Part shown: in pieces, positions 17,513 to 50,152 of the stretch
Numbering within the stretch: position 1 is the stretch's first letter
Layout of the letters: every line of letters starts with the position of its first letter
Origin: a virus
DNA: 64,000 nt
Reading direction: 5' to 3' (one strand)
Virus record (IMG/VR): IMGVR_UViG_3300035698_007174
Location: 4,684 to 68,683 of that record
The notes under the pieces: model-generated
The model's input: only the letters and a program-made list of their open reading frames with translations
The model's database searches: none
Told to the model about the DNA's origin: nothing
Translations under genes and position numbers: made by a program

Positions 17513-17887
17513 ATGAAGTTCTCAAAGATAGATAGAGATCTGAAGACTAGAGAATACTTTGATAGATATTATCATTGGTTAATAAATAAAGGAGACAAAA
17601 AACAGTTATTTGACATAGACCAGGAAATACAAGCAAAAGAAATTGAACTTCATTTAGAAAATCATCCTGAGGTTCAAGATCAGAATAAAGAGACAATCAA
17701 TTGGGTAATTAAAAATGCCGGAAAGTTTCGGAACTTTATAAATTCAGTTAAAGAACTTGCGATATTTATGTATTTTATTCAAAATGTCGATCCAGAATGT
17801 AACAATGAAAAATTTGATGAAAACTATGACAAGATGATCGAGTTGTATAATGATTTGAAAGATAATTTAATTGACAGTATTTATTAA
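17513..17887 (+). CDS. Hypothetical protein
   Basis: AGGAGG RBS. Confidence 0.6.
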   Translation: MKFSKIDRDLKTREYFDRYYHWLINKGDKKQLFDIDQEIQAKEIELHLENHPEVQDQNKETINWVIKNAGKFRNFINSVKELAIFMYFIQNVDPECNNEKFDENYDKMIELYNDLKDNLIDSIY

Positions 17888-17897
17888 GGAGTTTAAA

Positions 17898-34383: not shown

Positions 34384-34640
34384 GTAAAGAATGTCATGAT
34401 TGTGGGGTTGAGAAAGGAAAACAGCATATGCCTGGTTGTGACTGGGAAGAATGTCCTTTTTGTGGCGACCAGTTACTTAGCTGTACCTGTTGTTATGATA
34501 TTCTTGATATAGATTCCTCTCAAGAACCGATATACTCACAAGGATTAAATGAAGAACAATCTAGTAAGTGGGAAGAGATTTTAAAGAATAGAGGATACAT
34601 TCTATACGGGGATGAAAAAAGATTTGGAGAAGCACTATGA
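34380..34640 (+). CDS. Cys-rich zinc-binding protein
   Basis: CHDCG...H..GCD.E.CP.CG.QLLSC.C. Confidence 0.75.
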
Positions 34641-35683
34641 TCAAGAAGGTGACTATTGAGAATTTTCAGAGTCATAAGAATACAGAACTAGAATTTTGTC
34701 GTGGAGTCAACATAATTGTTGGCTCCTCTGATAAGGGCAAATCTGCTATTTTGCGATCTCTGAGATGGAATTTTGAAAATCAACCATTGGGAGATCGTTT
34801 TCGGTCTAAATGGGGTGGGAATACCAAAGTGACTGTTGAAACAGAAGATGCTGTTGTTGTTCGAGGGAAAACTAAATCCTCTAACTTTTACCGGATAGGT
34901 CAGGAGTTGTATACTTCTTTCAACAAAACTATTCCTGAACCCTTACAGAATCTTTACAATTTCCTGCCATTAAATTTCCAGTGGCAACACGATTCTGTTT
35001 TTTTGCTCGGGAACTCTGGTGGAGAAGTAGCCAGATATATAAATGAGTTGATCGATCTGACTATCATCGACTCAAGTTTGCAGAGTATTGAGAGAATCAA
35101 AAGATCTCACAACAAAGAGATGGAGTTTCAACACAAACTTCTAAAAGAGAAGCAAGTTGAATTGAAATCCTACAAAAAGTTGGATGGCTTAGAAGAGTTA
35201 GTTCTGGCTGCGGAAGTACTCGAACACGAACTTTATGTGAACTATGAAACATTGTCTGAGATGGCTGACTTAATTGGAGAGATCGAAGATTGTAAGAAGC
35301 AACTAAAAGTGTTAGACAAGACTAACAAATGTGAAGGTACTGTTTCCCTGGTGGGTGAGATTTATGCCAAGATGGATAGAATCGATGAACAGATAGATGA
35401 GAGAGATGATTTTATTGTAGATCTTCAGTTATGTCGTACAAAATTAGAGGAGACTAACAAAGTTTCGGTTATAGAAGAATGTTACAAGGCAGCAGATAAG
35501 TTATACTACGCTTACTCTGATAGTACTGAAGTTTATTTTGCTGCTGATTCTCTGGCAGATGCTTACGAAATCTGTCAAGAAGAATATGAGGAACAGAAAA
35601 ATATCCACAAAGAAGCAGTTCGGCAACTAAAAGAGATCATGCCCGATGTTTGTCCTACTTGTGGTCAGGAGATACATAAATGA
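34637..35683 (+). CDS. sbcC: SbcC/Rad50-like ATPase, N-terminal half
   Basis: IENFQSH, Walker A GSSDKGKS, coiled coil, zinc hook CPTCGQ at the C-terminus. Confidence 0.88.
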
Positions 35684-36567
35684 AACCAACTTTTATATTG
35701 ACAGCTGACATTCATATCAGATCAGACATTCCTACTTGCCGGACCGATGACTATTGGGAAGCTCAGGAAAAGAAGATTGCATGGTTGAAAGAACTGCAAG
35801 CAAAACACAACTGTCCTATTCTAAATGCCGGAGATTTACTAGACAAGTTCAGATCTTCCCCTCACTTGGAAGCCTGGGCCATTCAGAACCTACCGAAGAT
35901 ACTGACCATTGTGGGCAATAATCACGATATGCCATACAATAACATCAAATACCTCAATAGAGGTTCACTATGGGTGTTGAAATCGTCTGGAGTAATCGAT
36001 ATACTAGATGGCTATGACACGTTCAAAGACATACTTCTATTTGGATCTCATTTTAACTTTGACAAGATCCCTGAAATCAATCTTCCGGAAGGAAACTTTA
36101 AAAAGAAAATAGCAATGCTGCATATGATGGTGTCCAAAGATGGTGAGATTCCAAACTCTCACTCCGGAACATCTCTCTTGAAGAAGTTACCTCAGTTTGA
36201 TTTGATTGTCACCGGACATAATCATCAGTCTTTTGTTTGTGAGTACCAGGGGAGAGTTCTTATCAATCCAGGATCCATGATGAGAATGTTTGCTGATCAG
36301 GTAGAAGAGAGTCCTAAAGTATACCTGTGGAATGAGGATGGAACCTACGAACCAGCTTCTTACCCATATGAAAGTGGAGTAATCAGTCGGGCTCATATCA
36401 TTAAAAAGGAAAAGAGAACTGAGACTATTGAATCTTTTGTGGCTAAAATGAAGAAAGATTCTTGTGTCGAATTCAGCTACGAGAAAAATATGGAAAACTT
36501 TATTAAAAAAAATAAGCTATCTCGTAGTATAATTAATAAGATAAGCGAAGCAATGGAGGTAATATGA
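35680..36567 (+). CDS. sbcD: SbcD/Mre11-like nuclease
   Basis: ADIH, AGD, GNNHD, GHNH, NPGS. Confidence 0.88.
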   Translation: MKPTFILTADIHIRSDIPTCRTDDYWEAQEKKIAWLKELQAKHNCPILNAGDLLDKFRSSPHLEAWAIQNLPKILTIVGNNHDMPYNNIKYLNRGSLWVLKSSGVIDILDGYDTFKDILLFGSHFNFDKIPEINLPEGNFKKKIAMLHMMVSKDGEIPNSHSGTSLLKKLPQFDLIVTGHNHQSFVCEYQGRVLINPGSMMRMFADQVEESPKVYLWNEDGTYEPASYPYESGVISRAHIIKKEKRTETIESFVAKMKKDSCVEFSYEKNMENFIKKNKLSRSIINKISEAMEVI

Positions 36568-36752: not shown

Positions 36753-36985
36753 GTTTACTAAATCGAATTACTGATCTAAAGGAACGAATTGAAGAGTCCA
36801 AATTGGCTCGGGAAAGAGAGAAAGGGAAACTGGCTGGCATGGAAGAGACTATGAAAAAGAAATATAAATGTACTTCTTTAGAAGAACTGCAGAAACAAGT
36901 CAGGGAGATGAAAGCAGACAACGACAAGAGAGAGAAAGAATTGAAAGAACTCTTGGGTGAGATTGAGGAGAGGTTTGATGATTAA
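36749..36985 (+). CDS. Small coiled-coil protein (possible SbcC linker piece)
   Basis: Entirely charged heptad pattern. Confidence 0.6.
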   Translation: MSLLNRITDLKERIEESKLAREREKGKLAGMEETMKKKYKCTSLEELQKQVREMKADNDKREKELKELLGEIEERFDD

Positions 36986-37709
36986 TCTTTACAATGGAGA
37001 TTGTTTAGAAGTAATGGATCAGTTGATTGAACAAGGTATCAAAGTGGATGCAATAATAGCAGATGTTCCCTACGGGACCACTGCTTGCAAATGGGATCAG
37101 GTCATTCCCTTTGATGAAATGTGGGAACGGTTAAAATTAATAAGGAAATCTAATACGCCCACCGTATTATTTGGGAGTGAGCCTTTTAGCTCTCATTTGA
37201 GAATCAGTAATATAAAAGAGTTTAAATATGATTGGATATGGGAAAAGAATTTAAAATCTGGTAACTTAAATGCACGTAAAAGACCAATGCTAGGCCATGA
37301 AGTCATCTCTGTTTTTATGGAAAAATTAGGCAGCAGTTACTACCCACAAAAACGAGTAAGAACTAATGAGATAAAATCAGGCAACAAAAATAATAGTAAA
37401 ACATCTGTATATGGTAAGCAAAAAGAATTATATGTGGATAGGCAATCTGATAAAATCAATCCTGATACTATAATTAAGAATATTAAGTGTGTACATAATA
37501 GTCAAGGAAAAGTTCACCCTACTCAAAAACCAGTTGAATTATTAGAATACCTGATTAAAACATACACAAATGAAGGAGATTTAGTTTTGGACTTTACAAT
37601 GGGATCAGGAACTACTATGGTTGGTTGTAAAAATCTAAATAGGCATGGGATTGGGATAGAATTAAACAAGGAATATTTTGAAATAGCTAAAGGGAGGATT
37701 GGAGAGTGA
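36978..37709 (+). CDS. DNA methyltransferase, N6-adenine/N4-cytosine (beta class)
   Basis: GDCLE, ADVPYG, HPTQKP, LDFTMGSGTT; start MINLY at 36978. Confidence 0.92.
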   Translation: MINLYNGDCLEVMDQLIEQGIKVDAIIADVPYGTTACKWDQVIPFDEMWERLKLIRKSNTPTVLFGSEPFSSHLRISNIKEFKYDWIWEKNLKSGNLNARKRPMLGHEVISVFMEKLGSSYYPQKRVRTNEIKSGNKNNSKTSVYGKQKELYVDRQSDKINPDTIIKNIKCVHNSQGKVHPTQKPVELLEYLIKTYTNEGDLVLDFTMGSGTTMVGCKNLNRHGIGIELNKEYFEIAKGRIGE

Positions 37710-38323
37710 TTAATTTACAGGAAAGAAGGGCCAAGTTAGAGAGAATGAAAGGACAGAAGGAAGCTCTCTCTAAAGAGATCAAAACTATCAAGAAGAAATA
37801 TCTTGAAGAGAAAGATAACTATGAAAATTCAATCAAGGCTCAAGAAGCTATGAAAATTGTGGCTCTTGAAACTCAACAAGGGATTACCTATCAATTATGT
37901 GATATGGTTACTCTGGCCCTAAATACTGTATTTGAAGATTCTTATGACTTCAACATTGAGTTTGTTGATAGAAGAGGAAAGACTGAAGCTGATTTGTCTT
38001 TCAGGAAAAATGATGAAGAGTACGATCCTATGACTGACTCAGGTGGTGGAGTAGTAGATGTTGCTGCGTTTGCCCTGCGAGTCAGTCTTTGGAGTTTGTC
38101 AAAGAAGAACAACACTATTGTTTCGGATGAACCAATGAAGTTTTTATCCAGAGAATTGCAACCAAAGGCTTCTGAGCTTTTGAAAATGTTGTCCTGCAAA
38201 TTGGGTATTCAGTTCATAATTGTTACCCACGACAAGGCTTTGATGGAGAGTGCAGATCAGATATTTACAATTGATCAGGATGAAGATGGTGTTAGTTTTA
38301 TTGCAGAGGAGGAGATTGAATGA
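37706..38323 (+). CDS. sbcC: SbcC/Rad50-like ATPase, C-terminal half
   Basis: Signature SGGG, ALR, Walker B VSDEP, H-loop IVTH. Confidence 0.85.
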   Translation: MINLQERRAKLERMKGQKEALSKEIKTIKKKYLEEKDNYENSIKAQEAMKIVALETQQGITYQLCDMVTLALNTVFEDSYDFNIEFVDRRGKTEADLSFRKNDEEYDPMTDSGGGVVDVAAFALRVSLWSLSKKNNTIVSDEPMKFLSRELQPKASELLKMLSCKLGIQFIIVTHDKALMESADQIFTIDQDEDGVSFIAEEEIE

Positions 38324-39096
38324 TAAGAGTAATGATACAGGCTAGAATGGGAGCGAGCAGACTGCCAGGGAAAGTTTTACTTCCTTTGATGGGAGAGAAA
38401 AAGGCGTTAGAAGTACTTCTCGAAAGATTGAACTTGCTGAACAATGTGGGACCGGATAATATCTATATATGCACTACCACAAATCCAAAGGATAATGTCC
38501 TGGTTGATCAAATTGCCGAGTTTGGTGACTATAATGTATATCGGGGTGATGAAGATGATGTGATCAACAGAGTGTACGAATGCTGTAAAGAATACAAGTT
38601 TGCCAAGAACGATACAATCATAGAAATCACTGGTGACTGTCCTATCATCTGTCCTTACTTAATTCAGAATTTACTTGACAGATATGATGAGGGTGATTTT
38701 GACTATTTGAGTAATGTGATAACCAGATCTTTCCCTGATGGAATGGACATTCAGATTTATTCATTTAACATCTTTGAGAAAGCTGTTTTTTCTACAACTG
38801 AAATGAAATTTAGGGAACACGTTGGTTGGAATATTTTAAACTTCTCATCTTTCTACCAAGACAAATGTACTTTCAAGATCGGGAATGTTCCGGCAATGTT
38901 CAGATATTTCCATCCTGAGTACAGACTGACATTGGATACCCCTGAAGATTACAAAGTACTGAAAGCGATTTGTGAATACTTCAACAAAATCAATTTCACT
39001 CTGGGGGATGTACTTTCCTATATTGAGAGAAAACCTGAACTTCTCTCTAATTCAAATATCGCAACTAAATTAGCAGGAGTAAGTTATGAAGCATAA
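38320..39096 (+). CDS. Nonulosonate cytidylyltransferase (SpsF/PseF/NeuA-like CMP-sugar synthetase)
   Basis: IQARMGASRLPGKVL, RGDEDDV, ITGDCP, FPDGMD, RLTLDTPEDY. Confidence 0.9.
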   Translation: MIRVMIQARMGASRLPGKVLLPLMGEKKALEVLLERLNLLNNVGPDNIYICTTTNPKDNVLVDQIAEFGDYNVYRGDEDDVINRVYECCKEYKFAKNDTIIEITGDCPIICPYLIQNLLDRYDEGDFDYLSNVITRSFPDGMDIQIYSFNIFEKAVFSTTEMKFREHVGWNILNFSSFYQDKCTFKIGNVPAMFRYFHPEYRLTLDTPEDYKVLKAICEYFNKINFTLGDVLSYIERKPELLSNSNIATKLAGVSYEA

Positions 39097-40072
39097 AGTA
39101 TTACTTGTCGGAGCAGGATCTATTGGAGCTACAAAACCAGATAAGTTCGACTCTCCAACCACAGAACACGCATTGACTCATGCTCACGCTATCTTCAGTG
39201 ATCCACACTTTGAGTTGTCTGGGATTGTTGATACTGATGCAGAAAAAGGACTTGCTGCAGCTATGAAATGGGGAACTGGATATACAGGTGATTTATCTAA
39301 TGGGATTAGAAATACAGAACCAGATGTGATTGTTGTGTCTGTTCCTACTAAATGGCACTATGAGACATTATTAACTATAATAAACCATGAACATCTACCA
39401 AAGCTAGTTATTTGTGAAAAGCCTTTTTGTCAATTTTATGGAACTGGTGTTAGGATAATAGAACAGTTTGAGGAAGCTGGCATTACTTTGATGGTGAACT
39501 ACTCCAGAAGATTCTCCATTTCATTTCAAGGGATTGCCAAATCTATCCGAGAAGGAGATCTTGGGAAAGCTCAAGCAGCGTACTTGGTCTATGAAAGAGG
39601 AATGAAGAGAGATGCTAGTCATGCCATAGACTTGTTCAATTGGTTTTTTGACAATTCATATACAGAAGGAAAAAGACTCGGCAATCATAGCATACATGAT
39701 TTCAGTAAAGAAGACCCAACGGTCTCCGCTTACTTGTCTTATGAAAAGTGTCCGGCTGTTCATCTTATCCCTGTAGATGGTAGGAACTTTTGTGTGTTTG
39801 ATCTGACTATCTTCATGGAGAAAGGAGTCATTTATATCAAGAAATATGGCAAAGATGTATATGGAGCTGAGGTAGTTCCTGAACCTACTTATGGGAATTA
39901 CAATACTTTGGATACTCCAAAGTTGATAGGACATACGGACATAGAAGAAAATCTATTTAATCTGTATAAAAATGTGCATGAAGTTTTGGTAGGAGAAGCA
40001 GATCCGATCTCTCCTGCGTCTGGAGCTGTAGAAGTCAATCGGATATTGGAGGATTTAGCTTCATGGGAGTAA
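39086..40072 (+). CDS. Gfo/Idh/MocA-family NAD(P) oxidoreductase
   Basis: GAGSIG, CEKP, VNYSRRF, SHAIDL. Confidence 0.9.
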   Translation: MKHKVLLVGAGSIGATKPDKFDSPTTEHALTHAHAIFSDPHFELSGIVDTDAEKGLAAAMKWGTGYTGDLSNGIRNTEPDVIVVSVPTKWHYETLLTIINHEHLPKLVICEKPFCQFYGTGVRIIEQFEEAGITLMVNYSRRFSISFQGIAKSIREGDLGKAQAAYLVYERGMKRDASHAIDLFNWFFDNSYTEGKRLGNHSIHDFSKEDPTVSAYLSYEKCPAVHLIPVDGRNFCVFDLTIFMEKGVIYIKKYGKDVYGAEVVPEPTYGNYNTLDTPKLIGHTDIEENLFNLYKNVHEVLVGEADPISPASGAVEVNRILEDLASWE

Positions 40073-40446
40073 AAAGAATTTCTAAGTCAGGCATCGTTCT
40101 CAAGTTCTTAAAAGAAAATCCAACAGCTATCATCAAATATAAGTATGATGTGAAGACTGATCGGGATTTGGTTGCTGTTTATATTGATAAGAAAAAGATA
40201 TTCCGGATTAAGTTTGATTGTTTCAATACAGTTTTGGAAGCACTAATTGTAACGAAAAGAGAAAGTGCTTCTACAATCTATCTAAAGTTAGATCCTGAGT
40301 TTAAGGACTTGAAATTGGTAAATGGTTTTAAGGATTATGATATTGGACCTACCGGAAGACTTGAAGGTGATGCTGAGAGAATAGTTTGCGAAAAAGAAGA
40401 TAAGCAATTTATTGAACATTTTGTAAAGGAGCTTGTATGCATTTAG
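40063..40446 (+). CDS. Hypothetical protein
   Basis: ORF overlapping both neighbours. Confidence 0.55.
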   Translation: MGVKRISKSGIVLKFLKENPTAIIKYKYDVKTDRDLVAVYIDKKKIFRIKFDCFNTVLEALIVTKRESASTIYLKLDPEFKDLKLVNGFKDYDIGPTGRLEGDAERIVCEKEDKQFIEHFVKELVCI

Positions 40447-41756
40447 CTTTACTGGGCGGTAAGAAACTACGAACTAAATTCTTCCCTCCCCAAAAGACCA
40501 TCGGGAAAGAGGAAAAAGAAGCAGTCATCGACTTCTTGAATGATATAGAAGATACTGGAAACATCTTGTCCGGATACAGGGGGAATTGGATTCCTCAGTT
40601 CTGGGGTGGAACAAAAGTTCAGGAGTTAGAGAAAGCTGTTGAGGGGTATCTAAATGCTCCGGACGATGCAGAAGTGTATGCTCTGGCGGTGAACTCCGCT
40701 ACTTCCGGATTGCAGATTGCTTGTGGGGCCATTGGAATAGTTCCTGGGGATGAAGTAATTGTCACTCCTTGGTCTATGAGTTGTTCTGCAACTGCTCCAA
40801 TGTTATATGGTGGTGTCCCTGTGTTTGCTGATATTGAAGCAGACCATTTCTGTTTGGATCTCGCAGCTATTGAAGCTAAGATTACAAACAAGACAAAAGC
40901 GATTATTATAGTTGATCTATTTGGTCAACCTTATGATGTGGAAAAGATAAATGCTATTGCAAAAAAACATGGACTGATTATAATTGAAGATGCTGCTCAA
41001 GCAATTGGATCTACTTACAAAAGTTGTGATGCCGGAACTCTGGGAGACATTGGTGTCTTCTCTTTTACTCAGGGAAAACATTTAACTGCTGGTGAAGGTG
41101 GAATGTTGGTTACTAAAGACCATGATTTGTATATGAAGATGGCATTAATCAGAAACCATGCTGAAGCTGTGATCTCTGCTATGCCAGATGAAGTTCAAAT
41201 TGAGTATTACTGGCAACCAAATATGATTGGTTTTAATATGCGGATGACTGAGATCCAGGCTGTGATTGTAAAGGAACAACTTAAAAAGATATATGATACT
41301 GGAGACTATATTGAATATCGACAACAGAATGCAAATGATATAATGCAGGGGTTGGCAGATCTACCTATGATATGGAGAGCTAAAGTTAGAAAAGAATGTA
41401 CACATTCATATTATGTTCTTCCCTTCTTCTATGATGAGACTAAAATGGACATTCCAATTCCCAGAGATCTATTTATGAGAGCTGTTCGAGCTGAGTTGTC
41501 TGAAGAATTGGGGAGGATTGATCGAGGGGTTCCAATTGGTTGTGGATATATTACACCATTGTATGACCTACCGCTGTTTGCTGCTCGGGTGTTTGATCGA
41601 GAGGACTATCCTGTAGTTGAAGAGTTACATAGAATGGACTTTTGTTTGACTCTTTATCATGCTCTGGATTTGAAAGAGTCGGATATAGCTGATATTGTAA
41701 ATGCCTTTCACAAAGTGTATAAGTACAGAGAGGAGTTGTTAAATTATGGGGTATAA
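40437..41756 (+). CDS. DegT/DnrJ/EryC1/StrS PLP-dependent sugar aminotransferase (PseC role)
   Basis: VNSATSGL, PGDEVIV, EDAAQA, FSFTQGKH (PLP lysine), GEGG, GFNMRM. Confidence 0.93.
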   Translation: MHLALLGGKKLRTKFFPPQKTIGKEEKEAVIDFLNDIEDTGNILSGYRGNWIPQFWGGTKVQELEKAVEGYLNAPDDAEVYALAVNSATSGLQIACGAIGIVPGDEVIVTPWSMSCSATAPMLYGGVPVFADIEADHFCLDLAAIEAKITNKTKAIIIVDLFGQPYDVEKINAIAKKHGLIIIEDAAQAIGSTYKSCDAGTLGDIGVFSFTQGKHLTAGEGGMLVTKDHDLYMKMALIRNHAEAVISAMPDEVQIEYYWQPNMIGFNMRMTEIQAVIVKEQLKKIYDTGDYIEYRQQNANDIMQGLADLPMIWRAKVRKECTHSYYVLPFFYDETKMDIPIPRDLFMRAVRAELSEELGRIDRGVPIGCGYITPLYDLPLFAARVFDREDYPVVEELHRMDFCLTLYHALDLKESDIADIVNAFHKVYKYREELLNYGV

Positions 41757-41955
41757 ATATTTTGTTTCATTTATTGTAGCTGATTGTAATAAAAATAAAG
41801 TTCCTGGGAGAGCTATTATGCACTTTTCATCTAAAATAGAAAATGAAACGCATATAGTTCAAATAGAAGACAGTATACAAGAAATGAATTATAGATCTGT
41901 GAATGTATGTATCACCAACTTTATCTTATTGAAAGAGGAGGACGAATGTATTTAA
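41746..41955 (+). CDS. Hypothetical protein
   Basis: GGAG RBS; low GC. Confidence 0.5.
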   Translation: MGYKYFVSFIVADCNKNKVPGRAIMHFSSKIENETHIVQIEDSIQEMNYRSVNVCITNFILLKEEDECI

Positions 41956-42314
41956 TATGTCCCAATTGTGGAGAAAAAAAGATTGACCAATACCATATGC
42001 CCACTGGAGCCATTTGGTGTACTGCTTGTGGATATACAGCTCCGAGTAAAGAAAACTATAATCCATTTAAACAAACAATAAAATGGAAAGATGCTTTTAT
42101 GGATCTATTATATCTTGCCATGACCCAAGCTGATTTTAGAAATGGAGTAACCGATCATGGCGTGGATGAAGGGAATCTTCAGGCAGCTAGAGAAATGAAC
42201 AGAATATGTACTGTATACTCTGGAGTATCTTCTGGAGAATTCCAGGAATATTTTAATAAAAGACAACAGCATATTTCAGATCCCCAATTATTTAAAAAAA
42301 TCGAAGGAGAATAA
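41907..42314 (+). CDS. Zn-ribbon hypothetical protein
   Basis: CPNCG...CTACG; real start MYLIC after GGAGG. Confidence 0.6.
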   Translation: MYHQLYLIERGGRMYLICPNCGEKKIDQYHMPTGAIWCTACGYTAPSKENYNPFKQTIKWKDAFMDLLYLAMTQADFRNGVTDHGVDEGNLQAAREMNRICTVYSGVSSGEFQEYFNKRQQHISDPQLFKKIEGE

Positions 42315-43133
42315 ATGTATTTAATATGTGAGATAGGATCGAACCATAACAACGATCCAAAGAGAATAGAGAAGTTGATAGCTGAAGCTGCCGAAGTGGG
42401 GTTCAGTGCTGTCAAGTTCCAGTTGTTCAAAGCTGACAAGATGTATAAAGAAGCTGCTGAAGATCTGAGAGAATCAGAATTGGATACCCGTTTCTTTCCT
42501 ATGATTAGAAACTTGTGTACAGATCATAAAATAGAACTAGGCTGTTCTGTGTTCTACCAGGGAGCAATTAAAGAGATAAATGAATATGTGGACTTTTGGA
42601 AGATCAGCTCTTTTGACTTCAAACGAACTAAGTTAATTGAAGCTTGTTTGAAAACCAAGAAACCAATTATCATCTCTCTAGGATTAGCAGGGAACTCAGA
42701 TGTAATCTACATGATGGCTCACTGCGAATCATTCTGTGCTGCGAATAAACTTGATCCAAGAATGATTTCTTTCATGCACTGCAATTCAAAGTATCCCTGT
42801 CCACCAGAGGAAGCGAAACTGAACCGGATTGATTTCTTACGGTATCTGACTGAGAATAGGTATCCAATAGGGTACTCGGATCATACTGCAAATATTATGG
42901 TACTGGCTTTGGCAATGTTTTTGTGCAACGACTCTGCTGTGGAAATACATTATGACTTGGAGGATCTACAAGGAGCTGAAACCAAACATGGACATTGTGC
43001 TTACCGGACCAGAATAGAAGCTGCAGAGTATATTCGGAAAGGATTAAATCAGTCTTTTATCGGTGAATGGAAACCGGATGAAGATATGTTGAAATTATTG
43101 GCTAACGAGAAGACAGGATTTAGAGGAGAATGA
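42315..43133 (+). CDS. neuB: Nonulosonic acid synthase (NeuB/PseI family), lacking the C-terminal SAF domain
   Basis: EIGSNH, AVKFQ, KISS, HCNSKYP, GYSDHT, VEIH; only 272 aa. Confidence 0.9.
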   Translation: MYLICEIGSNHNNDPKRIEKLIAEAAEVGFSAVKFQLFKADKMYKEAAEDLRESELDTRFFPMIRNLCTDHKIELGCSVFYQGAIKEINEYVDFWKISSFDFKRTKLIEACLKTKKPIIISLGLAGNSDVIYMMAHCESFCAANKLDPRMISFMHCNSKYPCPPEEAKLNRIDFLRYLTENRYPIGYSDHTANIMVLALAMFLCNDSAVEIHYDLEDLQGAETKHGHCAYRTRIEAAEYIRKGLNQSFIGEWKPDEDMLKLLANEKTGFRGE

Positions 43134-43134
43134 T

Positions 43135-43473
43135 ATGAAGAAGATTTTTGCGATTTTGCTTATAGCATTACTTATGCTGACAATGGTGTCATGTTCTAAA
43201 ACGATTGAGACTGAGATTACTAAAGTTGAATTTTATGCTGAACATGGTGTATTTTCTTTTGAGGGACTATTTGTTCATGAAGATCAGAAATATGCTTGGC
43301 AGGTCTTTTTTCGCCCACCAGATAGAGAACACCTACAAGCTATATTTGATGGTAGATTTAAACTCGACTTTCTTTTTGAAACAGTGGATGGACAATTGAT
43401 GCTGACTCCTGAGATTATACTTACAAAGAAAAGAGCTGTGGAAGTTAAGGTCACTCCAGGAAAAGTGGTATGA
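43135..43473 (+). CDS. Putative lipoprotein
   Basis: MKKIFAILLIALLMLTMVS-C signal. Confidence 0.65.
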   Translation: MKKIFAILLIALLMLTMVSCSKTIETEITKVEFYAEHGVFSFEGLFVHEDQKYAWQVFFRPPDREHLQAIFDGRFKLDFLFETVDGQLMLTPEIILTKKRAVEVKVTPGKVV

Positions 43474-43658
43474 CTAAAATGCAATGGATTATGGCTGGCA
43501 TAGTTCGGTTTCATAAAGAGATTGAATCTTGGTTTGTGACTGAAGAGGAGCAGCTTAAAGAAATACAAAAAGAAGGAATGAAAAAGATTGATATGACAAA
43601 GTATATGACAAAAGGAGGAAAAAGATATGGAACCAAACTTCTATCCAAAAGAAAGTGA
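43470..43658 (+). CDS. Hypothetical protein
   Basis: ATGA overlap within the operon. Confidence 0.45.
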   Translation: MTKMQWIMAGIVRFHKEIESWFVTEEEQLKEIQKEGMKKIDMTKYMTKGGKRYGTKLLSKRK

Positions 43659-44574
43659 ATTTCTAATTACTGGTGGAACCGGATCTCTCGGGAAGACTTT
43701 AGTGAAACTTCTTCAGAGATATAAACCAAAAGGTATTCGGATTTACTCCAGAGATGAATTGAAACAGTGGAAGTTGAGACAACAGTTTGCAGAGTATGAC
43801 AATATTGCTTATCTCCTCGGTGATGTGCGGGATTACACTAGATTAGAAAGAGCTATGAATGGCGTTGATGTAGTTTTCCATTGTGCAGCTATGAAGCAAG
43901 TTCCGGCTTGTGAGACTGATCCTGAAGAAGCTGTCAAGACAAATATTCATGGGGCTCAAAATGTTATGAATGCTGCAATCAACAACAATGTCAAGGTGGT
44001 GATGAACATCTCAACCGATAAAGCTGTGTATCCCGTGAATTTATATGGAGCAACCAAGATGGCTGCAGAGAAGTTGTTCATCCATGGTAATGTTTACTCG
44101 GGTGACTATGGAACAAAGTTCTCCTGCTGTAGATATGGGAATGTCCTGGGTTCTCGGGGAAGCATTATCCCTCTGTTCTTGGAACAACAGAAGACAGGGG
44201 TAATTACAATCACTCATCCTAAGATGACCAGATTCTTTATCCGGTTGGAAGAGGTTGCTCAGTTTGTAATAAATGCTGCCTACATAACTGATGGTGGACA
44301 GATCTATGTTCCAAAGATGAAAGCTATGAAAGTACTCGATGCTGCAAAAGTGATCGCTCCGAATGCTGCTATCAAACTAATTGGTATTCGACCAGGAGAG
44401 AAACTACATGAGTGTTTGATTACAAAAGAAGAAAGCTATCATGCAACTGAAAAGAAGAATATGTATATCATCGACCAGAATGTAAATACAGGAAATGAGT
44501 TTACTCTGGATAGCAATTCTGTTACTCAATATACCGAAGACGACTTTAGGGAATTGGTCAAGGAGTTTTTCTAA
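43627..44574 (+). CDS. pseB: UDP-GlcNAc 4,6-dehydratase (PseB/FlaA1 type)
   Basis: ITGGTGSLG, YSRDELKQ, AAMKQVP, STDKAV.PVNLYGATK, RYGNVLGSRGS, GIRPGEKLHE. Confidence 0.92.
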   Translation: MEPNFYPKESEFLITGGTGSLGKTLVKLLQRYKPKGIRIYSRDELKQWKLRQQFAEYDNIAYLLGDVRDYTRLERAMNGVDVVFHCAAMKQVPACETDPEEAVKTNIHGAQNVMNAAINNNVKVVMNISTDKAVYPVNLYGATKMAAEKLFIHGNVYSGDYGTKFSCCRYGNVLGSRGSIIPLFLEQQKTGVITITHPKMTRFFIRLEEVAQFVINAAYITDGGQIYVPKMKAMKVLDAAKVIAPNAAIKLIGIRPGEKLHECLITKEESYHATEKKNMYIIDQNVNTGNEFTLDSNSVTQYTEDDFRELVKEFF

Positions 44575-45152
44575 TGTATGAAACAGATAGAATAAAGTTA
44601 GTTCCTTTCAATAGAGAGTTCTTGGAGAATGAAGTTACTGGATATAAAAGATGGTTTCTAAATCCATTGGTAACTGCTCAGAATTCTCATGGACTCTTCC
44701 CGAAGTCAGAAGCAGAGTACGAGATGTTTTTAGAATCGATCGATATAGCTGAAGCAATTGTGTTTGCTATTTTGGTGAAACAGGGAGATGAGATTCCTGC
44801 CTATGTTCATATTGGAAACGTATCTCTTCAGGGTTTTAATTGGATATACCGATCAGCTGAATTTGCTGTGGTACTGGGAGAACCGGACTTTTGGGGAAAG
44901 GGGTATTGTACGGAAGCTACCGAATTGTTGCTGAAGCATGGGTTTGGCAAATTGAACCTCCATCGAATATGGTCCGGAACTGCATCGACCAATGTTGGAA
45001 TGCAAAGAGTATTTGACAAATTGGGGTTTCAAGAAGAAGGAATCTTCAATGATGGAATGTTTCTCAATGGAAGGTATGTCGATATATGTTGTTATTACCT
45101 GTTGGATTGGCAATGGAGTGATTTTTTCCAAAAAAAAGGGAGGGTTAATTGA
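44574..45152 (+). CDS. GNAT (RimL/PseH-like) N-acyltransferase
   Basis: HIGNV, SAEF, FWGKGYCTEA, LNLHRI, KLGFQEEG; coupled to pseB by TAATG. Confidence 0.85.
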   Translation: MYETDRIKLVPFNREFLENEVTGYKRWFLNPLVTAQNSHGLFPKSEAEYEMFLESIDIAEAIVFAILVKQGDEIPAYVHIGNVSLQGFNWIYRSAEFAVVLGEPDFWGKGYCTEATELLLKHGFGKLNLHRIWSGTASTNVGMQRVFDKLGFQEEGIFNDGMFLNGRYVDICCYYLLDWQWSDFFQKKGRVN

Positions 45153-47809
45153 ACGAGATCTATGAAAAAAATATGGACGTTATTAAAAAGATTAGTGCAG
45201 TCTTTTCAAAAGAGCTAGAAGAAGCTCCGACTCCTGATTGGCTGACTCTGGTAAATGCTGACAATGGAAAAAGGAATTTCACTGTCTTCAATGCCGGTAG
45301 AGTTCAAGCAGCTTATGATCAGAAGGATCCGATCAAAGACGTGAAAAAGAGTATAAAGAATTTTACATATCTGAATGGACATTGCTCTATTCTAATTGGA
45401 GTTGGTCTGGGATATACTCTGAATGAAATCTTGAAGAAGAAAGAAAAGAAACACATAGTTGCTGTCATCGAACCAAACTTCTGTTTCTTCCGAGAAGCAT
45501 TTAAGAACTTTGACTTCACCAAGTATTTAGAGAATGGAACTTTGCTTTTGTTCGATGGTAAAAAAGAAAGTACTCCTTCATTCTTTGGGATGATAGAATC
45601 TAAATGGGTAATTCAACAATGGTTTTTGATGGCTGAGAAATATACTTATTTCAAAACTGATCTGTATGCTGACATTGTTCAGAACACAATGGAGATGATC
45701 AACTCAATCCAATGTAATGTTGGAACGGTCATCCATGCAGGAACCACAATAGCAAAGAACGATATTTTGAATGTTCCATATGTCTTCCGGAACACCGGAG
45801 TGGTAGCAGTAAAGGATATGTTCAAAGATGTTCCGGCAGTCCTGGTGAGCACTGGTCCATCTCTTCAAAAGAATATTCATATTCTGCAGGAGAATAAGGA
45901 CAAAGTATTAATCATTGCTGTGGCCCAATGTCTTCGGGTACTGCTAGCATACGACATTGTTCCAGACTTTATTACAACAGTAGATTATGGGAAAACAAAT
46001 GAAGAACACTTTAAGGGTTTATGGGATACTGATACTACTTTGGTCTGTCTCAATCGCACTTATGCTCCTATTCTCAAGCAATGGAAAGGTAGGAAGTTAA
46101 TCACTGTTTCTAAGTATTTAGAGAATGAATCAGTGGTTGGATTAATGCAACACAAAGGGTATTTAGAACAGGGTGGATCAGTTAGCCATCTAAATGTTGG
46201 TTTGGCTCTACATCTTGGCTGCGATCCCATTTGCATCATCGGACAGGATCTCGCTTATGATGGAGAACATTCTCATATTCCATTGGTGGACGCTGGTGGA
46301 AAAATTACTGAGAAAGAAGATGGTACTTTGTCTTGGGATATAAACGACCCGCATAGTCACTTGAAAGGAAAGCCATATGGGATGGGGATGGCTAAAGTTG
46401 TCCCAGGGTATTTTGGAAAACCTGTCAAGACAAATATGGGATTGGCAAGTTTCATCACTTCTTTTGAGCAGATCTTCCTTACTTATAAGGAGGAGCATAC
46501 CTTTATCAATTCAACTGAGGGGGGAGCTTCCATAAAAGGAACTACTCAAATGTCTCTGAAAGATTTCATTGCAGACTACGGTTGTGATTTAGACAAGTCT
46601 TCTATTAAAAAGATTCCTGAGTTTATTGACGATCCCAGGAAATTAGCATTGAGATTGATCAAGGCTTTTAACAAAGAGATTAGAGAACTGTATGAGCTGA
46701 TTAAGTATGCTGAAGATGGTTTGGGTTATAGTGATAAGATCTTGTCTGAAAAAGGTAAGATAGAATTCAAGATGGCTGTTGCAAAGAATCGGGAAATGTC
46801 AAACAAAGCTCACAAGATAGCAGCCACCAATCAGTTGATGGGTATGTGGATCTATGAAGCAAGCAGAGCAATTGAAAGCAGGGAGTTGAAAGTATCAGCT
46901 TCTACAAAGCATTTATTCAAGGACCGGAAAGACTTAGAAACTAGAGTGAAACGGAATCGATTGATTTTGGAAGCTGCCAAAACTGCTGCGGAAGAGATGA
47001 TCGAGTTGTATGAAGAATCTTTGGGGTTGCTGAAAGAATACAGGGATACGGACAGTCCGGACATTCTTGTATCTTACATTTATGAATCTGCTGATCTGCA
47101 GGATATTGACGACTACTTCCATGTTGGGAATTGGGCCCATCCTTATCTCGAAGCAAAAAAACTAATTGAGAACTCAGATGAATATTATGATGGGGATATT
47201 GATTATGCTTATGACATTCGGAAAAAAGCAATTTGGTTGAGATCAGAAGCGACTAGAGAAGCAAAAGAAGCTGGAGACAATTCTGACTTAATCCATTACA
47301 ATCAATTGATCATGGAAGCTCAAGTTTTGGGAAGAGAAGAACGGAACTTTATGGGATCCCTAGAAAAGCTGAAAGAAGCGGAAGTGGTAAACGACAGTGG
47401 TGAAGAAGCCATCTGGGGAATAGGATCTGCTTACTACCAGTTAAAGAAATTTGAAAAAGCTGCAGAGAAATATGAGAAGTTGATTCTTCTCTTTCCGGAA
47501 AACAATCGGTATCAATTTGAATATGGACAAGTACTGCTCAATATAGATATGGCTCGGGGATTGGAAGTACTGCAGAAAGTATTTGAAAAGACTGACGAGT
47601 TTGATTCCTTTCTATTTAGGCTGGCTCAGTTGTATGCAGACTCGGAATTGTTTGAATTATCTCATATCGCAATATGCAAATATCTTGAAAAGTTCCCAGA
47701 CAATATGGAAGCCTGGTTGGTGAAAGCGAAAGTCTTGGAAGAACTGGACCGGATGGAAGAGTACCAAGAAGCAATGGATAAGTACAACAAGATGAAGGGG
47801 GTTTCATGA
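45149..47809 (+). CDS. maf: Maf-family (DUF115/MAF_flag10) protein glycosyltransferase with C-terminal TPR repeats
   Basis: IGVGLGY, VSTGPSLQKN, PDFITTVD, GGSVSH, LGCDPICIIGQDLAY, INSTEGGA; TPR pattern (AIWGIGSAYYQLKKFEKAAEKYEKL...FPEN) in the last ~170 aa. Confidence 0.88.
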   Translation: MNEIYEKNMDVIKKISAVFSKELEEAPTPDWLTLVNADNGKRNFTVFNAGRVQAAYDQKDPIKDVKKSIKNFTYLNGHCSILIGVGLGYTLNEILKKKEKKHIVAVIEPNFCFFREAFKNFDFTKYLENGTLLLFDGKKESTPSFFGMIESKWVIQQWFLMAEKYTYFKTDLYADIVQNTMEMINSIQCNVGTVIHAGTTIAKNDILNVPYVFRNTGVVAVKDMFKDVPAVLVSTGPSLQKNIHILQENKDKVLIIAVAQCLRVLLAYDIVPDFITTVDYGKTNEEHFKGLWDTDTTLVCLNRTYAPILKQWKGRKLITVSKYLENESVVGLMQHKGYLEQGGSVSHLNVGLALHLGCDPICIIGQDLAYDGEHSHIPLVDAGGKITEKEDGTLSWDINDPHSHLKGKPYGMGMAKVVPGYFGKPVKTNMGLASFITSFEQIFLTYKEEHTFINSTEGGASIKGTTQMSLKDFIADYGCDLDKSSIKKIPEFIDDPRKLALRLIKAFNKEIRELYELIKYAEDGLGYSDKILSEKGKIEFKMAVAKNREMSNKAHKIAATNQLMGMWIYEASRAIESRELKVSASTKHLFKDRKDLETRVKRNRLILEAAKTAAEEMIELYEESLGLLKEYRDTDSPDILVSYIYESADLQDIDDYFHVGNWAHPYLEAKKLIENSDEYYDGDIDYAYDIRKKAIWLRSEATREAKEAGDNSDLIHYNQLIMEAQVLGREERNFMGSLEKLKEAEVVNDSGEEAIWGIGSAYYQLKKFEKAAEKYEKLILLFPENNRYQFEYGQVLLNIDMARGLEVLQKVFEKTDEFDSFLFRLAQLYADSELFELSHIAICKYLEKFPDNMEAWLVKAKVLEELDRMEEYQEAMDKYNKMKGVS

Positions 47810-47831
47810 ACTTAGATTTTTTAGATATGAT

Positions 47832-48095
47832 ATGTATAATTGTCATAGTAGTTTTACTTATGAAATGTGTGGGGTGAGTATGAGGGTAGCAATGGAATTT
47901 AAATTGCCGGAAGAACGTAATCAGTTTTATATGGCTGCGGATGGGGAAGACTACTATTCAGTTTTGTGGGAGTATTCGCAGTACTTTTTTAGCTTGGCTA
48001 AGTGTAGAGATTTGACAGACGAAGAGATCAGCTTGCGGGACAAGTTGTATGAGTTCATGGACGACTTCCATGTAGATTTAAACAAAATATCATAA
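47832..48095 (+). CDS. Hypothetical protein
   Basis: EFKLPEE motif common in small phage proteins; start likely MRVAM. Confidence 0.6.
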   Translation: MYNCHSSFTYEMCGVSMRVAMEFKLPEERNQFYMAADGEDYYSVLWEYSQYFFSLAKCRDLTDEEISLRDKLYEFMDDFHVDLNKIS

Positions 48096-48105
48096 AGGAG
48101 TTTAT

Positions 48106-48324
48106 ATGTTATTACAATTTTATACAACTAAGGGGTACACGCTCATCGACACGTCTAAGTATGAGTCTATTGAAGTTATTAATCAGCCCATTGGTTTTAC
48201 TTTGGTGTTAATTGAAAGTGTGTGGGAAAATAAGAAAGGAAAAAGATACGCAAGTGATGGGGTGTATGGAAAAGTTAAGACAGAATTCGCATTGTCATCA
48301 GGGAACTTCACAGTAATCAAGTAA
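48106..48324 (+). CDS. Hypothetical protein
   Basis: AAGGAG RBS; last gene before the terminator. Confidence 0.55.
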   Translation: MLLQFYTTKGYTLIDTSKYESIEVINQPIGFTLVLIESVWENKKGKRYASDGVYGKVKTEFALSSGNFTVIK

Positions 48325-48339
48325 CACTCTCAGACGCAT

Positions 48340-48373
48340 AAAAAAGACCCTTCCTTAACCGGAGGGGTCTTTT
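48340..48373. terminator. Bidirectional intrinsic terminator between convergent operons
   Basis: AAAAAAGACCCTTCC-TTAACC-GGAGGGGTCTTTT. Confidence 0.88.
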
Positions 48374-48460
48374 GGTATGATTACCCGTTTATAGGGTGTG
48401 TCGTTTAAATGCACTTGTAGTATCGTGTATTTCCTTGTACGTTTAGAAAAGTCACTGATC

Positions 48461-50152
48461 TTATGTCCAAACAGCAGGAGTAGATACCTTGTTTGTAATA
48501 TTAGCATCAGTAGTATCAATAAAGTCGTTTCCTGAGTTTGCTGCTTCATTTGTGAATAAGGCAGCTCCATAAGTACAATTGTGGAATCCTTCTTCGGCTC
48601 CTCCAACAGAAGTAGCCAGTGTTACATAACAACCAGATATTCCAATACAATTAGCATAACCATAGGCATTTCCACCTGTGGCATCTATGTCAGTCACATA
48701 ACACCCTGAAACTCCTTCACAAGAATTGAGCCCCATGCAGTCTCCATTTAAGGAATCAATATCATTTGCATAACAAGCAGATAGAGCATTACTATTGTAA
48801 AATCCATAAGCTGTTCCTGTTGAAGAATTGTCGATTGTTGTAGCTCGACAACTACTGAGACATTCACACTGATAAAATCCAGCAGCAGCAGCAGCAGAAG
48901 AACTTGTAATTCCGGAAGCCCTACAAGATGAGAGACTTATAGAATTATAAAATCCATAACATACACCAGAACTTGAAGATAAATCAAGAGCTTTACAACT
49001 AGCAATACTAGATCCATTATCAAACCCGTAGACAGCTCCATTAGCATTTGAAATTGTTGTTGCAATACAACTTGAGACTTCTGTACAAGCACTAAAGCCA
49101 TAAACTGCTGATCCTCCACTTGTTATAGTTGTAGAAGTGCATCCAGATAGTTCGGAGCAAGACCAAAAACCATAAGCAACATTAGAAAAGGCATTTATGT
49201 TGGAAGCTAAACATTGGGATAAATGATCACATTCTCGATAACCATAAACAGCTTGAGCAGAGGTTGTGTCTATTGTATCTGCTCTACAATTTTGCAAGTA
49301 ATCACAAAGATAATATCCATATGAAGCGGAACCTCCAGATAGAACATCATCAGATTTACAATTAATTAAATAATTACAATCATAAAAACCATAGGCTGCA
49401 GCTGCAGTACATTCTATGTCATATACTCTGCAATTTACTAAGTTGTCACAATTACTAAATCCTCGTATAATCCCTATACCAGATGTCAGACCTTCTATTG
49501 AGCAATTAACTAAATGAACATAGGGAGCTCCGCCAGCTGTTCCTTCAAAACCGTAAAAGGAAGAAGTTGATTTTCTAAAACTTGTTTTGCATCCATATAG
49601 ATAAGTTTCACCCGTCATATAATAGGATCTAGTTAGTGCATAGGCTCCAACAGCAGTTCCTATAATATTCATATTGTAAATAGAAGACCCAGTTACATCG
49701 AAGTAAGATCGTTCATCTCCTACATCGAAGTAAGATCCGACTTCACAGAATATCAATCTATCCCCAAAGTCTATATTCCCCCAAGTGTCTCCACCAGAAA
49801 GGAATGAAGTAGCTCCATAGCAATTGTATCCACCAGCCAGATAACCCAGATACATAGAAGTGTATTCTAGTTTAATCCGGTAAGCATTTGCTGCTGTTCT
49901 CTCAATGGCTGCATTGAAAAGTGCCTGAGTATTTGCAATGAAGTCCCACCCACCAGAGACTAAACTCTGGATTGCTGGAAATAGTTGTTGATTGGTGTCA
50001 TCTCCCTGAGAGTTCATAACAGAGCCAGTTTGTTCTATGACATAAGCTAGTTCTTCTTGAACAGCATTAAGCCATGGGGCAACTACAGTTGTTCCAGGAG
50101 GTCCATCTTGAAAGCGATTCTCTAAATTATTCTCTCCTTCTATTCTGTGCAT
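48461..50152 (-). CDS. Tail fibre/spike 2 with Cys-rich ~24-aa solenoid repeats
   Basis: Mu-like fibre N-terminus MHRI...WLNAVQEELAYVIE; repeats YGFxxCxxLSxCxAxxI. Confidence 0.85.
   Translation of the reverse strand: MHRIEGENNLENRFQDGPPGTTVVAPWLNAVQEELAYVIEQTGSVMNSQGDDTNQQLFPAIQSLVSGGWDFIANTQALFNAAIERTAANAYRIKLEYTSMYLGYLAGGYNCYGATSFLSGGDTWGNIDFGDRLIFCEVGSYFDVGDERSYFDVTGSSIYNMNIIGTAVGAYALTRSYYMTGETYLYGCKTSFRKSTSSFYGFEGTAGGAPYVHLVNCSIEGLTSGIGIIRGFSNCDNLVNCRVYDIECTAAAAYGFYDCNYLINCKSDDVLSGGSASYGYYLCDYLQNCRADTIDTTSAQAVYGYRECDHLSQCLASNINAFSNVAYGFWSCSELSGCTSTTITSGGSAVYGFSACTEVSSCIATTISNANGAVYGFDNGSSIASCKALDLSSSSGVCYGFYNSISLSSCRASGITSSSAAAAAGFYQCECLSSCRATTIDNSSTGTAYGFYNSNALSACYANDIDSLNGDCMGLNSCEGVSGCYVTDIDATGGNAYGYANCIGISGCYVTLATSVGGAEEGFHNCTYGAALFTNEAANSGNDFIDTTDANITNKVSTPAVWT

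Follow-up and report, generated by a model that had tools for sequence, protein, structure and literature searches.

A PseG-less pseudaminic-acid-type pathway and a TPR-fused Maf transferase in a widespread clade of uncultured myoviruses

Introduction

The nonulosonic acids (sialic, pseudaminic and legionaminic) are regarded as sugars of cell surfaces, which phages bind or cleave and which, as prophages, they may also tailor. In Campylobacter and Helicobacter, cytidine monophosphate (CMP)-pseudaminic acid is made by the canonical PseB-PseC-PseH-PseG-PseI-PseF pathway. Maf proteins transfer nonulosonates to serine and threonine residues of flagellin in the cytoplasm (an excerpt of PMC7591256). 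Here we describe a phage genome, IMG/VR record IMGVR_UViG_3300035698_007174, in which genes of a pseudaminic-acid-type pathway without PseG stand beside a gene for a Maf protein fused to tetratricopeptide repeats (TPR), which we call Maf-TPR. This system is resident in a widespread clade of uncultured myoviruses. We give a probability of about one half to the reading that the phage makes a CMP-pseudaminic-type sugar and that Maf-TPR O-glycosylates one of its virion proteins. The window that we analyzed, 64,000 nucleotides in length, comprises bases 4684-68683 of the 68,683-bp record, and positions are those of the window.

To our knowledge, glycosylation of phage virions is so far known only for mycobacteriophages, whose enzymes reportedly belong to other glycosyltransferase families than Maf and use common sugar donors made by the host. 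These glycosyltransferases modify capsid and tail-tube subunits (the part of PMC10877033 that cites Freeman et al. 2023). The present phage resembles mycobacteriophages in encoding its own glycosyltransferase and differs in having a dedicated nonulosonate pathway and a Maf, virion modification being in this case a proposal. Phage-borne pseudaminic acid genes also occur in Acinetobacter baumannii prophages, where a cytidylyltransferase-like protein, EpaA, is paired with an oxidoreductase, EpaB. As excerpted from PMC12053666, EpaB is a short-chain dehydrogenase rather than a Gfo/Idh/MocA protein, and these prophages carry two tailoring genes only, need the psa genes of the host, act on the host capsule and have no Maf. 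Lastly, FlmG of Caulobacter is a flagellin glycosyltransferase in which the TPR is a predicted protein-binding module (excerpt of PMC7591256).

Results and Discussion

The sugar module and its enzymes

From 38320 to 48324 the plus strand carries an unbroken series of overlapping or abutting open reading frames (ORFs) at the end of a replication and repair operon. The sugar module itself measures about 9.5 kb, or 14% of the genome, and seven of its ORFs have clear enzyme families in Pfam. The features of the module and its downstream border are:

38320..39096, plus strand: cytidylyltransferase of PseF/SpsF type, 258 aa (CTP_transf_3, E 4e-20, 73 bits against a cut-off of 22.6)
39086..40072, plus strand: nicotinamide adenine dinucleotide (NAD)-dependent Gfo/Idh/MocA oxidoreductase, 328 aa (GFO_IDH_MocA, E 1.5e-13)
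40063..40446, plus strand: ORF of 127 aa; no Pfam or NCBIfam match and no homolog in 53 related loci (E 1e-5)
40437..41756, plus strand: pyridoxal phosphate-dependent sugar aminotransferase, PseC-like, 439 aa (DegT_DnrJ_EryC1, E 1.3e-78)
41746..42314, plus strand: two small ORFs of 69 and 135 aa; sub-threshold zinc-ribbon matches only, not conserved in related loci
42315..43133, plus strand: short NeuB-family nonulosonate synthase, 272 aa (NeuB, E 5.6e-33, 114.8 bits against 22.1, residues 21-220)
43135..43658, plus strand: two small ORFs of 112 and 62 aa; no family match, not conserved in related loci
43627..44574, plus strand: inverting uridine diphosphate (UDP)-N-acetylglucosamine 4,6-dehydratase of PseB type, 315 aa (Polysacc_synt_2, E 2e-97)
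44574..45152, plus strand: GNAT N-acyltransferase, proposed equivalent of PseH, 192 aa (Acetyltransf_3, E 2.8e-20)
45149..47809, plus strand: Maf-TPR glycosyltransferase, 886 aa, TTG start (MptE-like, E 1.8e-41; Maf_flag10_N, E 1.5e-8; TPR families)
47832..48324, plus strand: two small ORFs of 87 and 72 aa that close the plus-strand operon; no family match, not conserved in related loci
48348..48366, plus strand: terminator-like hairpin at the convergent junction, from a consensus scan (17 sites in the region against 11.1 expected, a weak indication)
48461-50152 and 50162-51670, minus strand: two tail-fiber genes, 563 and 502 aa, convergent with the module; candidate acceptors

An earlier note, made from the letters of this DNA alone, had named six genes of the module, and all six are present at the positions given there, on the plus strand in a gap-free run of ORFs, each with a Pfam match to its family. 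The oxidoreductase gene, absent from that note's list, overlaps the cytidylyltransferase gene by 11 bases, and its product matches generic Gfo/Idh/MocA structures only (E 6e-7 or weaker). The seven small ORFs (62-135 aa) between the sugar genes or after Maf-TPR have neither an above-cut-off family nor homologs in related loci; the 135-aa protein has a Cys-rich, zinc-ribbon-like N-terminus, and the 112-aa protein begins with a hydrophobic stretch followed by Cys that resembles a lipoprotein signal by eye. A promoter scan was uninformative (63 sites against 60.3 expected).

Comparison with NCBIfam and with solved structures placed the individual enzymes more or less close to their canonical counterparts. 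The dehydratase scored 395 bits with the PseB model TIGR03589 (cut-off 407.75; the next model, FnlA, gave 234) and is 53-60% identical to bacterial proteins named inverting dehydratases. PseC was the best model for the aminotransferase, at 207 bits against a cut-off of 423.5. For the GNAT protein, PseH gave 31.7 bits (cut-off 93.1) and was outscored by SpeG-type models. The NeuB protein, which is without the C-terminal SAF/antifreeze-like domain, reached 113 bits with NeuB_NnaB (cut-off 399.65) and 89 bits with PseI (340.25), spanning about 227 of 329 profile positions, the barrel part, and leaving the C-terminal third of both profiles unmatched; among solved structures it is closest to the 290-aa NeuB 6ncs_A (E 3.2e-16) and next to SpsE 1vli. 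The cytidylyltransferase aligned end to end with its closest solved relative, 6oew_A 'Cytidylyltransferase' (E 1.6e-33), and gave weak N-terminal matches to KdsB-type NCBIfam models, with no PseF equivalog among them.

The phage thus has, like the canonical pathway, a PseB-type dehydratase, a PseC-like aminotransferase, a GNAT, a NeuB-family synthase and a cytidylyltransferase. Unlike that pathway it is without PseG, its NeuB is without the C-terminal domain, an extra Gfo/Idh/MocA oxidoreductase is present, and its GNAT and cytidylyltransferase are not equivalogs of PseH and PseF. Together with the transferase described below, these genes amount to a nearly complete CMP-nonulosonate route joined to a true Maf-fold enzyme.

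PseG (TIGR03590) had no match at E 1 or better anywhere in the record, and at E 0.01 or better it had none in five related clade records, of which two have terminal repeats. Among the conserved ORF clusters of the module none matched a GT28-type family in Pfam; one of these clusters, c34, had no Pfam match. Removal of UDP would therefore fall either to the host or to an unrecognized protein, and the absence of PseG leaves the phage's self-sufficiency in sugar donor unproven. The claim that the phage makes its own donor accordingly stands as to the near-complete route and falls short at PseG.

A Maf fold with a C-terminal TPR array

Maf-TPR matches the MptE-like domain (PF01973/DUF115) over residues 207-371 with 142.2 bits against a Pfam cut-off of 34.6, and the same domain gave 145.6 bits in a six-frame search of the genome. 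The N-terminal Maf domain PF20157 scored 34.9 bits (cut-off 23.5) over profile positions 115-162 only, and Pfam TPR families lie at residues 753-871. With the PseD model NF050051 of NCBIfam, residues 3-553 gave 140.5 bits against a cut-off of 670; judged on sequence, Maf-TPR is a relative of PseD and not its equivalent.

An AlphaFold (AF2) model built from 26 sequences has a predicted local distance difference test score (pLDDT) of 91.3 and a predicted template modeling score (pTM) of 0.84. Its top fold match is the Maf of Magnetospirillum magneticum, 5MU5 (Foldseek rank 1, E 5.1e-17), with which VIA aligned 532 residues (Z 24.5, root-mean-square deviation 6.7) between model positions 1-631 and chain positions 8-650. 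In the model, a three-domain Maf (1-631) is followed by a helical linker and a TPR array (712-886) that aligns with the TPRs of MamA and O-GlcNAc transferase (OGT) at Z 17-19.

The core motifs of Maf are well conserved. In an alignment of five phage Maf-TPR proteins with eight bacterial or short Mafs, all 13 sequences share S234, G236, P237, S238, L239, P272, D279, G342-V345, G365-A369, N454 and G459, which in Maf-TPR form the motifs SGPSL (234-239), D279, GGSV (342-345), GQDLA (365-369), N454 and G459. Because these core motifs are invariant, Maf-TPR looks, as far as its sequence tells, like an active enzyme. The assignment of 45149 to the Maf family in the earlier note is therefore upheld by the MptE-like score, the 5MU5 fold match and the shared motifs; its description as a Maf glycosyltransferase holds for the fold and needs amending in that this is not a plain flagellin-type Maf, a C-terminal TPR array having been added.

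Among known proteins, Maf-TPR stands closest to the bacterial Maf flagellin O-glycosyltransferases, such as M. magneticum Maf 5MU5, Aeromonas caviae Maf1, the Mafs of Geobacillus kaustophilus and Clostridium botulinum, and Campylobacter PseD and PseE. It shares with bacterial Mafs the MptE-like/DUF115 and N-terminal Maf domains, the three-domain fold, the core motifs and an adjoining nonulosonate pathway. It differs in being only 22-28% identical to named bacterial Mafs, in its approximately 250 extra C-terminal residues with TPR, in the lack of a flagellin gene and in being phage-borne. Like FlmG and the eukaryotic enzymes OGT and SPINDLY, it joins a protein O-glycosyltransferase to a protein-binding TPR (model TPR against OGT, Z 17-18), whereas its catalytic domain is of Maf type rather than GT-B, its TPR is C-terminal (712-886) rather than N-terminal, and the families are separate. 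MptE-like/DUF115 proteins of 'uncultured Caudovirales phage' and of a giant virus also exist in UniProt/BFVD, with a Maf-like catalytic fold and automatic names; unlike Maf-TPR they are 213-714 aa long, have a TM-score of at most 0.25 to it, and none spans the whole protein.

In five related loci (L013, L023, L032, L041 and L048) Maf-TPR is split into a Maf core of about 460 aa and a helical/TPR protein of about 495 aa; in L048 several genes lie between the halves, and half-length counterparts are present in databases.

A non-protein acceptor, such as phage DNA or a small molecule, has in its favor that the MptE-like fold binds nucleotides and that phages glycosylate DNA with diverse sugars (the title of a reference in PMC12619734). 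TPR arrays, however, are protein-binding modules, the three-domain Maf architecture is retained whole, and no hydroxymethylase, thymidylate-synthase-like or other base-hypermodification gene was found among the roughly 80 ORFs covered by general family scans. We regard such an acceptor as highly improbable, DNA glycosylation being disfavored for want of hypermodification genes among those ORFs.

The module lies in a phage genome

The record has direct terminal repeats and a CheckV completeness of 100. It encodes the structural proteins of a myovirus (portal, large and small terminase, protease, major head protein, adaptor, sheath, tube, tape measure, baseplate hub, wedge proteins and fibers) and a replication block with a clamp, helicases, a primase, a PolA-type polymerase, a gp32-like protein, a UvsX-like recombinase and a sigma-70 region-2 protein. 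Matches to portal, terminase, sheath, baseplate and tail-fiber PHROGs flank the sugar module, and its G+C content (0.375-0.393) is that of its flanks. That the module is viral and interleaved with small phage ORFs, as had been proposed, is borne out by the complete phage record, the flanking PHROGs and the small ORFs between the sugar genes.

The stretch is present in 14 runs labeled salt lake metagenome. Contigs of four runs not flagged as its possible source cover 34-52 kb at a flat depth of about 2-7x, and single contigs of one such run, X4, bridge both module borders (37559-38808 and 47468-49695). Host DNA fused to phage DNA by mis-assembly might be suspected from the 53-60% identity between the phage PseB protein and bacterial PseB proteins. 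A chimera is excluded because contigs of independent runs span both borders at even depth; the G+C content is uniform, and the synteny recurs in 50 viral contigs. We therefore attach practically no weight to a misjoin, and read depth across 38-48 kb, which the earlier note had singled out for inspection, gives no sign of one.

No integrase-type family was matched among the ORFs scanned; the nearest signals come from the small terminase, whose helix-turn-helix weakly matches transposase and invertase PHROGs. The phage thus looks virulent, and lysogenic conversion is unlikely given the lack of an integrase-type match. An archaeal host was also considered and is unlikely in view of three phage proteins: a sigma-70 region-2 protein, a beta clamp of bacterial type and a DnaB-like helicase.

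Conservation across an uncultured myovirus clade

Among 8000 candidates scored, 1243 relatives of Maf-TPR were found at E 1e-3 or better. The best 120 of these 1243 are 796-970 aa long, 35-44% identical, have the same Maf and TPR make-up, and lie on contigs of at most 122,610 bp. A library of 1.84 billion 50%-identity representatives contained 621 matches at E 1e-30 or better, and about 100 of the 150 matches listed there are full-length. In IMG/VR, a scan with the single protein gave nothing and an alignment-based scan was needed; it yielded 53 loci, 50 at 34-46% identity and three at 25-28%. The latter three were dropped from the locus counts. A few of the loci are near-duplicates (L015/L025, L020/L021 and L003/L005).

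At least 7.5 kb upstream of Maf was available for 38 of the 50 loci. All 38 carry a GNAT gene, 37 PseC, 37 a NeuB of either of two types, 36 PseB, 35 the Gfo oxidoreductase and 32 the cytidylyltransferase, with all six sugar genes together in 30; Maf and NeuB, a pairing proposed as a search target in viral metagenomes, co-occur in 37 of the 38. The usual order, on one strand, is Rad50N-Mre11-Rad50C-cytidylyltransferase-Gfo-PseC-NeuB-PseB-GNAT-(small protein)-Maf. Downstream of Maf, where at least 5 kb was available for 34 of the 50 loci, the fiber, a 196-aa protein (p196) and baseplate genes are each found in 27 of 34. Wherever found downstream they converge on the module, and the other seven loci are arranged differently. 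The module is therefore conserved across the whole clade and is not a one-off.

Beyond viral collections, full-length Maf-TPR relatives in a species-genome collection occur only in metagenome-assembled genome contigs of six unrelated taxa, together with the phage module (bin labels Melioribacteraceae, Desulforudis, Alphaproteobacteria, WWE3, Woesearchaeota and Thermodesulfobacteriota). As these labels follow no pattern and one of the contigs is the same as a viral contig in IMG/VR, we read these as mis-binned phage DNA and rejected the labels as pointers to the host. Whether the genes form phage-specific clades had been raised as a question for trees. For PseB, all eight cell-labeled rows fall in one well-supported clade that contains none of the 40 phage-locus rows, in a FastTree phylogeny of limited sampling whose root was not determined.

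These counts bear on a further possibility, that the genes serve as auxiliary metabolism, boosting or altering the host's nonulosonate pool for surface glycans such as lipopolysaccharide, capsule or glycoproteins, with Maf-TPR as one consumer of that pool or in another role. The pathway is indeed incomplete without PseG. Prophage EpaA and EpaB re-tailor host pseudaminic acid (PMC12053666, excerpt), and their enzyme pairing is that of 38320 and 39086; pseI also stands among the abbreviations of a marine phage metabolic gene table in a review (PMC6359870, excerpt). Against this, Maf is the module's most constant member (and the query that retrieved the loci), with GNAT beside it in 38 of 38; Maf is known solely as a protein O-glycosyltransferase; and the ORFs scanned include no polysaccharide-type glycosyltransferase, flippase or polymerase. 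We judge auxiliary metabolism to be improbable.

Several features vary around the module. In this window the Rad50/SbcC-type ATPase is split on the plus strand into an N-terminal half (34637-35683) and a C-terminal half (37706-38323), between which lie an Mre11/SbcD-type phosphoesterase (35680-36567), two small ORFs and an N6/N4 DNA methylase (36957-37709); the Rad50N-Mre11-Rad50C order is repeated in related loci. In 31 related loci (e.g. L010:9763-10002 and L008:9795-10001) the gene directly upstream of Maf encodes a helical protein of roughly 65 aa, with the motif IR.KNN.WM.LLR.A, which is fused to GNAT in L027. This window does not have the gene, whose product may act together with the transferase as a partner. 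Eight of the 53 related loci, L023 (6291-7385), L013, L015, L025, L028, L041, L043 and L048, contain within the sugar module a gene for a BNR_2 sialidase-like beta-propeller (about 360 aa, Pfam E 3.9e-11), which this window also does not have. In L006, L007, L008, L019, L026 and L031 a second cytidylyltransferase-like gene is followed by an ORF of cluster c34 (about 220-270 aa), and four of these six (L006, L007, L008 and L019) also carry a second, more divergent short NeuB type.

Searches among described phages

In a set of 50,697 GenBank phage records, which may leave out close relatives of the window, tblastn with Maf gave no match, and megablast of the 9.5-kb module against GenBank phages likewise gave none. 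For NeuB, tblastn returned two weak records only. PseB matched 79 records, of which 11 cover at least 80% of the query and none is related to this clade. In a full-text literature search, neither a Maf encoded by a phage nor a complete pseudaminic acid pathway of a phage came up, and no study of the UniProt/BFVD viral MptE-like proteins was found; closest to the subject were the Acinetobacter prophage enzymes and the review with pseI in its table (PMC6359870). The initial impression that no described phage has this combination thus agrees with the literature search and with the Maf search of GenBank phages.

A proposed mechanism and its acceptor

With the genes identified, and the Maf fold, the phage origin and the clade-wide conservation in hand, we propose the following chemistry from family membership and the canonical CMP-pseudaminic acid pathway. 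In the first committed step, the PseB-type enzyme would convert UDP-GlcNAc to a 4-keto-6-deoxy L-sugar, which the PseC-like enzyme would aminate at C4 and the GNAT protein acylate on the C4 amine. A hydrolase not encoded by the phage, either host PseG or an unrecognized protein, would remove UDP. The short NeuB would condense the free hexose with phosphoenolpyruvate to give a pseudaminic-type nine-carbon acid, and the cytidylyltransferase would make the CMP donor, while the translationally coupled Gfo/Idh/MocA oxidoreductase possibly tailors the sugar. Maf-TPR would then move the sugar from the CMP donor onto Ser/Thr residues of a protein that its C-terminal TPR array holds in place. The acceptor would most likely be one or more phage virion proteins (fiber, sheath, capsid or decoration), modified in the cytoplasm before assembly.

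Several observations lead us to favor a virion protein over a host protein. The phage looks virulent; Maf-TPR proteins occur on phage-sized contigs only and are conserved among many samples; fiber and baseplate genes usually lie opposite the module (27 of 34 loci); and mycobacteriophage enzymes that glycosylate virions provide a precedent (PMC10877033, as excerpted). Flagellin_N, a family whose absence from the window had been noted at the outset, has no match anywhere in this record or in five related records, which is an argument for a phage rather than a host target. In addition, the modeled TPR array resembles the substrate-recruiting TPRs of OGT and, as regards function, the FlmG TPR domain (excerpt of PMC7591256), which would count toward a protein acceptor on the phage.

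The adjacent fibers are obvious candidates. Both carry an N-terminal MHRxEG...GPP motif common to fibers of 27 of the 34 related loci, and the N-terminus of the 502-aa fiber matches tail-fiber PHROGs. The earlier note had put forward Ser/Thr-rich fibers directly next to the module; they are adjacent, with 20-22% Ser+Thr, but other virion proteins of this phage have 8-21%. Because such proteins reach 20-21%, the fibers are only mildly Ser/Thr-rich, and we rejected this richness as a weak pointer to the acceptor. A complex prediction of Maf-TPR with fiber residues 1-100 gave scores of 0.00 and 0.00, without controls, and speaks neither for nor against binding. Both fibers consist mostly of repeats of about 23 residues (YGF..C...S.C, by eye), contain 5% Cys and terminate in W-x-T or WT, an ending also seen in a few related fibers (L006, L046 and L040).

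Co-occurrence with the baseplate was examined in 80 baseplate-J loci. Maf is present in nine of the 11 with at least 43% identity and at least 7 kb on the Maf side, and one of the two without an adjoining Maf carries it elsewhere on the contig; at 42% identity or less, Maf is present in none of 11 comparable loci. The p196 gene and the fiber type split along the same identity line. The co-occurrence is confounded by shared descent and does not identify the acceptor.

The p196 gene (51724-52314, minus strand) sits in the tail module between baseplate and fibers, and its 196-aa product is 40-63% identical within the clade. In a model with pLDDT 78.5, its beta domain (56-195) resembles phage capsid decoration/cement proteins, the best match being Haloferax tailed virus 1 8qsy (Z 9.5), followed by Pam3, Adjutor and Patience. 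Between portal and terminase, an ORF of 496 aa (2420-3910, minus strand) has no family match and a very Ser-rich C-terminal tail, in which 14 of 30 residues are Ser/Thr; it could represent a fiber of the head or neck and a candidate acceptor.

Other points weigh against a virion acceptor. No test run identified an acceptor. Only some 65 N-terminal residues are common to the fibers of the clade, whose Ser+Thr contents (12-22%) are ordinary, and the module does not adjoin fiber genes in seven of 34 loci. PseG is missing from this and the five related records, so that the pathway may need a host that already makes pseudaminic acid, which would fit a role at the host surface equally well. The exact sugar is uncertain because the equivalog cut-offs of PseC, PseH, PseI and PseF were not reached, and NeuB is without the C-terminal domain of characterized synthases. 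Every characterized Maf acts on flagellin and none on a phage protein, as far as the excerpt of PMC7591256 goes.

The same chemistry could be directed at a host flagellin, pilin or S-layer protein, so that the cell surface is re-decorated during infection; this could prevent superinfection by competitors for which the altered structure is the receptor, or change motility. All characterized Mafs glycosylate flagellins (PMC7591256, excerpt), and flagellar nonulosonates determine phage binding in Campylobacter (PMC7099621, excerpt). The lack of PseG points to hosts in which a pseudaminic acid pathway is already at work and which therefore probably display the sugar, and the BNR/sialidase-like gene in eight of 53 related modules hints at interaction with a sugar-bearing surface. 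However, the phage looks virulent, with no integrase-type match among the ORFs scanned; assembled filaments cannot be modified from the cytoplasm; and some 9.5 kb, 14% of the genome, is a large cost for exclusion within a lytic cycle. A further, weak argument is that Maf-TPR proteins are 34-46% identical across many phages and samples, against at most 32% for bacterial Mafs, which fits a conserved phage-borne acceptor better than a variety of host flagellins. On balance we consider a host acceptor unlikely, though deserving of more weight than auxiliary metabolism, and retain glycosylation of a virion protein as the preferred reading. Its extension to the clade as a whole, namely that these widespread myoviruses coat their own virions with a sialic-acid-like sugar by means of their own pathway and a TPR-guided Maf re-targeted from flagellin, is more tentative and falls somewhat short of even odds.

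Implications

If virion glycosylation is the function, this would be the first virus-encoded system for protein nonulosonylation, and virion glycosylation would extend to a new chemistry. Maf enzymes would then not be limited to flagellins, and the more than 100 diverse TPR-fused Maf clusters would be candidate tools for custom O-glycosylation in the cytoplasm. A PseG-independent route or an unrecognized hydrolase would be implied, a possible gap in the accepted nonulosonate pathway. Sugar-coated particles could also adsorb, aggregate or persist in brines and sediments differently, and grazers and immune systems could recognize them differently. Heterologous expression offers a direct test of the idea, all of its parts being small proteins that look soluble.

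Other features of the record

Beyond the module and its neighbors, the minus strand carries tRNA-Leu(TAA) and tRNA-Asn(GTT) at 7091-7165 and 8685-8756. The phage's own sigma-70 region-2 protein is encoded at 17871-18365 on the plus strand (Pfam E 1e-10). Lastly, a stretch at about 8700-13900 has 25% G+C, against 35-41% elsewhere, and few ORFs of at least 80 aa. It separates the packaging genes from the replication block, coding strand and GC skew switch there, and it could serve as an origin or as a regulatory region, or could hold a block of tiny early genes.

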